Shown in pieces: positions 49,271 to 52,200 of a stretch of 64,000 nucleotides of DNA. Under the pieces are notes generated by a model, which was given only the letters and a program-made list of their open reading frames with translations, was not told where the DNA came from and made no database searches. Numbering within the stretch: the stretch's first letter is position 1; each line of letters begins with the position of its first letter. This DNA comes from Leucoraja ocellata (taxonomy: Eukaryota), in the NCBI GenBank assembly GCA_036785375.1, contig JAWMAR010000780.1, forward strand, positions 496,001 to 560,000, given 5' to 3'. The translations under genes were made by a program, and so were the position numbers.

Positions 49271-52200
49271 CTGTCAGAGGAATAAGAGATGAAAATTAAA
49301 CATCTGACGACTCTGTGGTATAAGTTACAGGACACATAGAGGTGTCCGCACAGCCCAGGCCAGTCTGGGGACATAATCATGCCAACCTGGAGCTGTTGTG
49401 TCAGAGAGGGGATGGGCCAGAGGAGGTGGTGGTGGAATAAATGGGACTTTCCAGTGGGGCTTTCCCAAGGTTGACTGATTACACTGGGAACATTGAATGA
49501 ACAACAAGGAAGTTGAAACCGAAAGTGAAACACAAATTCTTGCAACAATTCCAAGAAGTCCAGCAGCAGAGTAATAAACAAGTGCAGAGTGCAACAAACC
49601 GAACAAGAGTTTGTTACCAGGTCAGTGCAGCTGGTGTCCTCCATCTGACTACTTCACTCTACAGATGCTACCTGACTCACTGAATTCCTCCAGCACTTTG
49701 TTGTCTGGTCGATAATCTAGGGCTGGACTAATCTCGTAATACAGCAGAGAGCATAAATTTATAAAATTGTAATTTTTCTCACAGGAGATAATGGATACAA
49801 ACAGCTGATATTTAGTGTCCATCCCTAACCATGCCTGAACTGAGGAAGCAGTTTAAAGTTGTTGGATCTGGATTTGTGGGTGACAGAAAGGGTGAGGACG
49901 GCAGACTTTCTCGCACAGAAATTAATGAACCAGCTGTGATTAAGACAATTTGGTGGTTTCACTATTATCAATCCTGAGATTAATTTAATTCCAGATTCAC
50001 TTAATTAATTAAAGTTAAATGCCTTGTAGCCATGGAGGGATTCAGAGCATCACACTGAATCAATGGTCTGCACTCCAGATACCCATGCAATGGTGTAACC
50101 ACTTCATGGTCATCCTCATCTACCTCTTCTGTACTAAATTCTGGAATGAAAAGCTGGAGTCTGTGCTGCAATGATTCAATGGGCTTGTGTGGTCAGGGAA
50201 GGAAACCTGGTGTCTTTACCCCGTGGGCAATGCAGTACCCACAGCAATGAAATGGGCCGCATTCCCTCAGTGATGACAAAACATCACGTTGATGGCAGAT
50301 TTATACAGTTACAGAACTCAGCAGCCACACAGAGAAGCAATCCGCAGATATGCATGCCAGGTATGTTCAGGTTAGTTTCAGATTTTCATCATCCGCAACA
50401 ATTTAGATATATGCAGAGGACTTCAGTAGATTTGCAAAGTATTGCAATGGCTAGAGGATGTGATAACAGTAAATGCCTCAAGAAAATGGCTGTTTCACCA
50501 TAACACAGCAGCAGCAATCATTGAGTTACACCACCTCAACCTGTGCATTCACCTCGGGTAAGCAGACAGTAGAGTTACAGTTCTCTTGCTGTGTTTCAGC
50601 AAACTGAATGCATCTGCCAATTTCCCCAACGATGTTCACATCCCACGTAAGCAGTTATACTGCCCCTGGGACGAGGCATTATAAACTAACGGCATGACAA
50701 ACTCACCGCAGTGCCTGACGTCTGAGAACACTTATGGTTCCAACTCAGCATTGCTTTGCTAGTTTAAGGTACATGGAGCTCCAGCCTTGTCTGACCTGCA
50801 CCACAATCCACATATCTCTGTTCACTCAAAATCTAAAATGCATCTCTACTTCCCTTTAAAGAGTTTGTTTTTACATTTTTGCCCTTTCCCTGTTCGGCTG
50901 CCCTGATAATGACTGCCTGTAAACCCTCGCTTGATACACAGAGTGAAAGACCTGGCCCGACTCCCAATCCGGCCACTACAATCCCATGCTGTCAGCGCAC
51001 TCACCTCCTTGCACAAATTCTGTAAATCTGCTCCAGTAAATCCTGCGGTCACAGCTCCTAGCTCCTTCAGGCACACGCCATCCAGTGGCGTTTTGGAAGT
51101 GCAGATCCTCAGAATGGAAAGTCTTGCCTAACATGTAAAAAATGTTAATTAGTAACCAAGAAAAAGTGTAGAGATGATCACAATGCAAATTGACCACTAT
51201 CTAAACAATTTCACTGAAAATGTGATCATCTGATCATTTCTTGTTGTTTTTGGAACATTATTATACACAGGCGCTGATATATTACTGTGTCAGTGAGGTT
51301 TGGAAATACTTTATATAAACACAGGACTGTCCTAAGCGTGACATATAAACGTTCCAATTAAAGGCAGAAGTGTAGTACACCTTTATCCACAGCTCTTTGT
51401 GTCTTCAAAAAACTCCAATAAATTGGCCACACGTGATTTCTCTTCCCTCCCCGTTGTGTTGACCTGATCATCCCGATTTGTTTGCAAGTGCTTTGCTATG
51501 ACATTTTAATAATAGCGTTTAACGTTTTTCCAATGACAGATGTTAAAACTGACAGGACCGTAATTTCCCTTTTTCTGTCTCCCTCCCATTTTGAATAAAG
51601 TACATTTGCTACTTTCAAAACTAATGCAACCGTCCCTGGAATTACGAAGTTAAGAAAAATTGAAACCTATGGGTCAACCATCTACTGTTTTTTAAGGGCT
51701 TTTCCAGGACACAGTGACCCATACGTCATCAACTCCACAAGTCGCTCGGATGATTGTTATTTTCCGACTTGCTCTCTGTTCCCGATTCTGGAATTTGAGC
51801 TATCTCTAATAGCTGCGCTCTGCAATGGTTTATCAAATGGTGGCCACTTCAACAAAACATTCAATGGAACTTTATTTATCCCAAGAGGAAAATTGATCTG
51901 CCAACAGCCATAAAAACACAAAATATATAAAGCATGAAATTAAAGTGACGAGTGGAAAGTACAGAAGTGCATCATCAACATCTCTTGAACATACTCGCCT
52001 CTTCATCTGGGGGTGGAACATAGATGATTTGATCAAAGCGGCCAGGTCGCAGTAAAGCATCGTCCAAGAGATCTGGTCGATTCGTAGCAGCAATCACAAT
52101 GACGCCTTTGTTACAAATTTCCTGAAACTCTATCTAAGGGATAATAACAGTTCAATTATCCTCAAACAATAGCAACAGCATAATGATGAAATATCATTGC

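Follow-up and report, generated by a model that had tools for sequence, protein, structure and literature searches.

The closest described system to the locus reported here is the control of the mammalian gene C15orf48 (NMES1/MOCCI/MISTRAV/COXFA4L3). According to the respective papers the promoter of the human gene is bound by RelA, with a ChIP amplicon reaching from -307 to -100 (PMC10831050), a single NF-kB site and three sites for HIF are listed for a human promoter construct (PMC13652134), and the gene is induced by IFN-gamma as well as by IFN-alpha (PMC7793259). In mouse the induction requires Ifnar1, Trif and Irf3, whereas the same paper describes the induction in human macrophages as unresponsive to IFN-beta, which its authors regard as divergent from mouse (PMC8654286). 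The mammalian switch has two arms, namely the exchange of the protein and the repression of NDUFA4 by miR-147b (PMC8035321), and miR-147 and miR-210 share the seed UGUGCG (PMC3441733). For zebrafish the MISTR literature (PMC7793259, PMC8035321, PMC8654286) reports that an intact miR-147b is lacking, yet the NDUFA4 site is retained. Our literature search found no report of C15orf48 induction in fish or shark, nothing that joins SPATA5L1 (the name under which the neighbouring gene AFG2B was sought), C15orf48 and an enhancer, and no treatment of the present element or of C15orf48 induction in cartilaginous fish. C15orf48 is not mentioned in the supplements of three fish stimulation papers (PMC12263217, PMC13355688, PMC5591513), large tables of which possibly lie outside this scope.

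The window, i.e., the whole 64-kb stretch of Leucoraja ocellata DNA that was analyzed, contains the eight exons of AFG2B (SPATA5L1) on its minus strand as located by tblastn; exon 1 shows ∼98% identity to the Leucoraja and Amblyraja proteins. Since tblastn and the splice sites together place intron 7 at 49271..51004 on the minus strand, followed by the coding part of exon 8 up to the stop codon (49115..49270, minus strand), the motif cluster described below lies within the last AFG2B intron, as the sequence-only reading had proposed. Its distance to the acceptor of this intron is 173-287 nt. C15orf48 follows downstream of AFG2B on the same strand. The gene (43438..46392, minus strand) is intact and consists of four coding exons (46392-46354, 45808-45720, 45275-45215, and 43506-43438) with 85 codons, which encode a protein of the Pfam family B12D. 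The exons are 58-78% identical to NMES1 proteins of ray, shark, and chimaera, and with a C15orf48 profile exon 3 scores 36 bits, whereas its counterpart in the NDUFA4-like paralog reaches 8 bits. The gene is present in sharks and chimaera and is named in hagfish. With the ATG at 46392 the cluster is 3.05-3.17 kb away, in agreement with the earlier estimate of about 3 kb upstream of C15orf48. This is the nearest gene start (3.1 kb); AFG2B and ARPIN start at a distance of 9.6 kb. A putative core promoter of C15orf48, rich in GC boxes and CpG and containing a 21-nt tandem repeat, can be assigned by its sequence content to 46474..46654 (minus strand). The repeat comprises the GC boxes at 46486-46581 in 4.7 copies and differs by indels among the three copies of the locus which are described below. 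Neither in this putative promoter nor between the promoter and the cluster did we find a consensus kB, IRF, or GAS site.

Fused AFG2B-C15orf48 gene models occur in a bamboo shark, in teleosts, and in a bird and point to a conserved linkage, and in several species the contigs bearing the two genes are equal in length; judged from such gene models the adjacency of the two genes is old. In Cyprinus carpio a chimeric gene model joins the N-terminus of NMES1 to the last AFG2B exons, a hint that in carps NMES1 and the 3′ end of AFG2B were independently duplicated in tandem. On the far side of C15orf48 the window contains SLC30A4-like exons on the plus strand, and past the start of AFG2B there is an Arpin-family exon with a Pfam Arpin match at 63650. 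The exon at 59264 (plus strand), which we take to be an ARPIN-like first exon, lies head to head with AFG2B at only 64 nt from the AFG2B ATG (59200, minus strand). The annotated skate AFG2B proteins start at 59311 and would overlap this exon. In human this side of AFG2B is occupied by GATM. Fragments of LINE-type reverse transcriptase and endonuclease are found at 18033-20429 (minus strand) and 29567-30873 (plus strand).

The cluster itself spans 115 bp (49443..49557) of AFG2B intron 7. Using general consensus strings for kB, IRF/ISRE, GAS, and ETS sites, we found all the motifs of which the cluster had been said to consist, and at the positions given for them. The canonical kB 10-mer GGGACTTTCC (kB site 1; 49443..49452, plus strand) is followed after 3 nt by kB site 2, GGGGCTTTCC (49456..49465, plus strand), which repeats site 1 directly over 11 nt, with a spacing of 13; the two differences between the repeats both preserve the kB consensus. 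Further downstream is a triple GAAA IRF-E/ISRE, GAAACCGAAAGTGAAAC (49515..49531, plus strand), the sole triple within the window, and finally a GAS (STAT) site, TTCCAAGAA (49549..49557). The ETS core, which had been noticed ahead of the triple GAAA, is indeed present as AGGAAGT (49507..49513, plus strand). Because this ETS-like core is placed 3 nt before the first GAAA of the IRF site, the arrangement is not a canonical 2-nt EICE, and AGGAAGT may alternatively be taken for a fourth, degenerate repeat unit of 6 nt (GAAGTT). The sites are spread out (kB and IRF are 49 nt apart), and the element is CpG-poor (CpG o/e 0.12). There is no AP-1 consensus inside the cluster; an AP-1 site at 49673 was left out of the count, as it sits in a SINE-like fragment. 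A third kB-like site, GGGCTTTTCC, had also been reported. The sequence is present at 48808..48817 (minus strand), but it breaks the consensus at position 4 and is situated outside the intron, beyond the AFG2B stop codon and the first AATAAA.

How often such an arrangement arises by chance was estimated in several ways. The window has 3 kB sites, for which 4.6 are expected, and thus no enrichment, and one triple GAAA with an expectation of 0.01 (1 of 100 shuffles). Two kB sites, an ISRE, and a GAS within 150 bp were met in none of 300 windows simulated with a Markov-3 model, and one site of each kind in 4 of 300. With motif rates taken from 330 kb of other stretches, a Poisson estimate predicts per genome ∼99 clusters of kB, ISRE, and GAS, 0.5 clusters with two kB sites, and 0.006 with two kB sites and a triple GAAA. 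In the 3.44-Gb assembly the combination of kB, 30-60 nt, and triple GAAA, a pattern fitted after the fact, has three matches, all of them copies of the element (control: none), and the combination of kB, ISRE, and GAS has five matches, three of which are copies of the element (control: two). The cluster is far beyond chance.

Simple pairs of kB and IRF-E sites, on the other hand, are at chance level genome-wide (10 matches vs 15 in the control). Six of the seven other loci of this type were examined (118 of 136 ORFs scanned), the locus on C276 being omitted as a look-alike of that on C189, and at none of the six does an immune Pfam family occur in the 10 kb to either side; transposase, reverse transcriptase (RT), sulfatase, and CRF were the only families found. 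Nine further motif loci (105 of 168 ORFs scanned) yielded mostly retroelements and, in addition, a single IBR domain and a single C-type lectin domain. Tandem kB pairs (1201 matches vs 231 in the control) are often repeat-borne among the matches listed, and so are, in this genome, the triple-GAAA strings (68 matches vs 16). A single repeat family accounts for 13 of the 30 triple-GAAA loci examined. This dispersed, CpG-rich family carries GAAAG(C/T)GAAAGTGAAAC at one end and may represent the 5′ region of a retroelement that spreads IRF-like sites. Triple-GAAA sites outside of this main family, among them G000:C171 near 790553, have an IBR-domain exon at a distance of ∼8 kb and a C-type lectin exon at 5 kb, and the genes concerned are possibly interferon-stimulated genes. 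Because the two-motif pairs are either at control level or repeat-borne, it is the density of the sites, four to five good ones, and the identity of the neighbouring gene that support the element. It has also to be considered that the motifs are not independent, since slippage is able to generate the second kB site and likewise the GAAA repeats, and that the kB pair, being a direct repeat spaced by 13 nt, may go back to a single event.

Additional copies of the element are found on contig C421, which is collinear with the present contig at 97-99% identity over 120 kb and most likely represents the other haplotype. On C421 a segment of 16 kb corresponding to 42331..57863 of the window is present in tandem (G000:C421:656356-688587). 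It includes all of C15orf48, the cluster, and the AFG2B exons 2-8 without exon 1, so that on C421 C15orf48 is present in two intact copies, both accompanied by the cluster, along with an AFG2B relic devoid of exon 1. In the middle part of the segment the three copies show 30, 24, and 31 private differences, respectively, and this argues for a real duplication. The copy number of C15orf48 likely varies between the haplotypes. Among the three copies there are 188 variable columns over 15.5 kb, none of which falls in the C15orf48 coding exons. No substitution is seen from 48574 to 49559, a span that includes exon 8 and in which the divergence is too low to gauge constraint. In one of the C421 copies a 13-nt deletion fuses the two kB sites into a single perfect site, GGGACTTTCCC; in the other copy a 161-nt deletion removes the kB-like site at 48808-48817. 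The 13-nt deletion speaks mildly against a rigid enhanceosome spacing. The designation of the cluster as an enhanceosome, understood as fixed cooperative spacing, is accordingly not supported, since one of the three copies has lost one kB site.

Several explanations compete for this arrangement. The cluster might be a neutral coincidence, produced when slippage duplicated a 13-mer resembling kB as well as a GAAANN unit beside a chance GAS in unique intronic DNA. The direct repetition of the kB sites with a spacing of 13 is what slippage would leave behind, and the missing enrichment of kB sites in the window, the ∼99 simple clusters expected per genome, the control counts of the two-motif pairs, and the loss of a kB site in one copy all agree with it. 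We nevertheless judge a coincidence unlikely, as the full cluster is expected just 0.006-0.5 times per genome, has as its neighbour, at 3 kb, a gene that in mammals answers these same factors, and contains kB repeats whose two differences both preserve the consensus. The element could also be real and inducible yet have another target (AFG2B/ARPIN or SLC30A4) or another role, as an inducible promoter of an alternative or antisense transcript. Its position inside AFG2B and the ARPIN and SLC30A4-like exons in the window would allow this, and an IRF site with two kB sites recalls the layout of chemokine promoters. C15orf48, however, has the nearest gene start and is the gene here that is known, from mammals, as immune-inducible, and the duplication on C421 comprises the element and C15orf48 but no AFG2B exon 1. 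An alternative 5′ exon at the cluster was rejected, as none of 20 extended or alternative C15orf48 and AFG2B gene models matched it in tblastn, which likewise counts against another role. We consider this explanation rather improbable.

That the element is the relic of a retroelement or LTR, either with tandem kB sites of the kind known from some viral LTRs or with the tail of a GAAACT-type retroposon, is suggested by the often repeat-borne nature of tandem kB pairs (among the matches listed) and of triple-GAAA strings in this genome and by a SINE-like fragment which begins at 49641, ∼85 nt from the cluster and outside it. Yet in a DNA search the segment 49400-49600 has three genome matches, all belonging to this locus (the window and two places on C421), so that the concern that it might be a repeat present at many loci proved unfounded. 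A transposable-element fragment was rejected on the grounds that there are no dispersed copies, in an own-genome search that can miss old, diverged repeats, and that the segment neither groups with any of the repeat clusters nor has their flanking sequences; a viral or vector origin was rejected as there was no match among viral contigs or plasmids. A relic of this kind is therefore very improbable. In the search for related DNA from other species, one metagenome scan gave no match and another a single unrelated match of 28%. Finally, a 140-codon ORF on the minus strand (49644..49225), open and starting with ATG, spans the cluster and could indicate a coding or splicing element. This ORF belongs to no Pfam family and has no homologue among 5.8 billion proteins, and its one weak match among 1.84 billion proteins is a repetitive hypothetical protein and lies outside the motifs; with no Pfam family and no credible homologue, a coding role of the cluster was rejected. 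The cluster furthermore precedes the likely branch point of AFG2B intron 7 by >130 nt, and we regard a coding or splicing function as scarcely credible.

The rarity of the cluster, taken together with the human C15orf48 being a direct RelA target and interferon-inducible, makes an inducible enhancer of C15orf48 the best reading, and we think that the cluster probably is such an inflammation- or signal-inducible enhancer. The proposal of an inflammation-responsive enhancer made in the sequence-only reading remains plausible in this form, predicted as it is from sequence, given a rare, non-repeat cluster, the nearest promoter, and matching mammalian inducers. C15orf48 is favored as the target by its proximity and by its co-duplication with the element on C421; around the NDUFA4-like paralog no kB/IRF/GAS cluster was detected in 40 kb. 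The type of element is textbook, and the present one would be a new instance, a putative enhancer. Upon microbial or cytokine stimulation NF-kB, IRF/ISGF3, and STAT dimers would bind to the cluster, the bound cluster would loop to the GC-box and CpG-rich promoter 3 kb away, and transcription of C15orf48 would be raised in the stimulated skate cells. The C15orf48 protein might then enter complex IV, and a subunit swap, if it follows, would run without miR-147. At 115 bp the element is directly amenable to a reporter assay.

With regard to the microRNA arm, Rfam searches detected no mir-147 hairpin in the C15orf48 3′UTR (43190..43437, minus strand; E up to 5-10) and no mir-147 in the skate genome (59 candidates scored); a mir-210-like hairpin was recovered by the same genome search, below the gathering score. 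The 3′UTR folds no better than shuffled sequences (z -1.05). A seed-like GTGTGCG is present right after the C15orf48 stop codon at 43434-43428. The only other B12D gene found is NDUFA4-like and occurs in two copies 70 kb apart (G000:C212:1983385 and 2053144); a separate NDUFA4L2 gene was not found in the skate genome. In the one of the two copies that was examined there is no CGCACA seed match in the 3′UTR (C212 near 1979700), the first CGCACA being ∼2.8 kb past the stop codon and well beyond the first AATAAA. The same copy has three exon-1-like stretches at 1988601, 1987964, and 1986825, the last with a stop codon. Intact C15orf48 and NDUFA4-like genes are both present in the skate. Since neither miR-147 nor a seed match in the NDUFA4-like 3′UTR was found, this skate seems to lack the microRNA arm of the mammalian switch. 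Of the suggestion that the immune-triggered complex IV switch is old among jawed vertebrates, the part concerning the genes holds, as these are old (sharks, chimaera, hagfish), whereas for the switch itself miR-147 and the NDUFA4 site were not found and the induction differs between human and mouse. It is a doubtful extension that an ancestral immune enhancer of jawed vertebrates ties C15orf48 to AFG2B, and that skates have an inducible, miR-147-free swap of C15orf48 and NDUFA4 with a C15orf48 copy number varying between haplotypes.

The arrangement of the cluster can be compared with several known systems. The control regions of CXCL10, CCL5, and IFN-beta combine IRF/ISRE sites with tandem kB sites. 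Like these regions the skate cluster packs one IRF site and two kB sites into ∼100 bp, but it is distal and intronic, has an extra GAS and no consensus AP-1 site, and the likeness is one of layout and not of sequence homology. In genomic regulatory blocks, or bystander linkage, the enhancer of one gene resides within an intron of its neighbour. The skate locus resembles them in having a putative enhancer in the intron of a housekeeping neighbour and an old linkage, whereas such a block is defined by a conserved non-coding element and the present element is known from the DNA of one species. With the MISTR circuit, composed of C15orf48, miR-147b, and the NDUFA4 3′UTR site, the skate shares the intact C15orf48 and an NDUFA4-like paralog; it differs in that no mir-147 and no CGCACA in the NDUFA4-like 3′UTR were found. 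Through this apparent absence skates would offer a natural experiment on whether the microRNA arm is required for the exchange of the proteins. The closest parallel is mammalian C15orf48 itself. The human RelA ChIP amplicon is promoter-proximal, whereas the skate motifs are found 3 kb away inside the neighbouring gene and the proximal region is without any. In both cases, however, the same gene stands beside AFG2B, and the factor classes acting on the mammalian gene, i.e., RelA, IFN/STAT, and IRF3/IFNAR, are the same as those represented by the skate motifs. If functional, the cluster would show that NF-kB and interferon signalling act on C15orf48 not only in mammals but also in cartilaginous fish.
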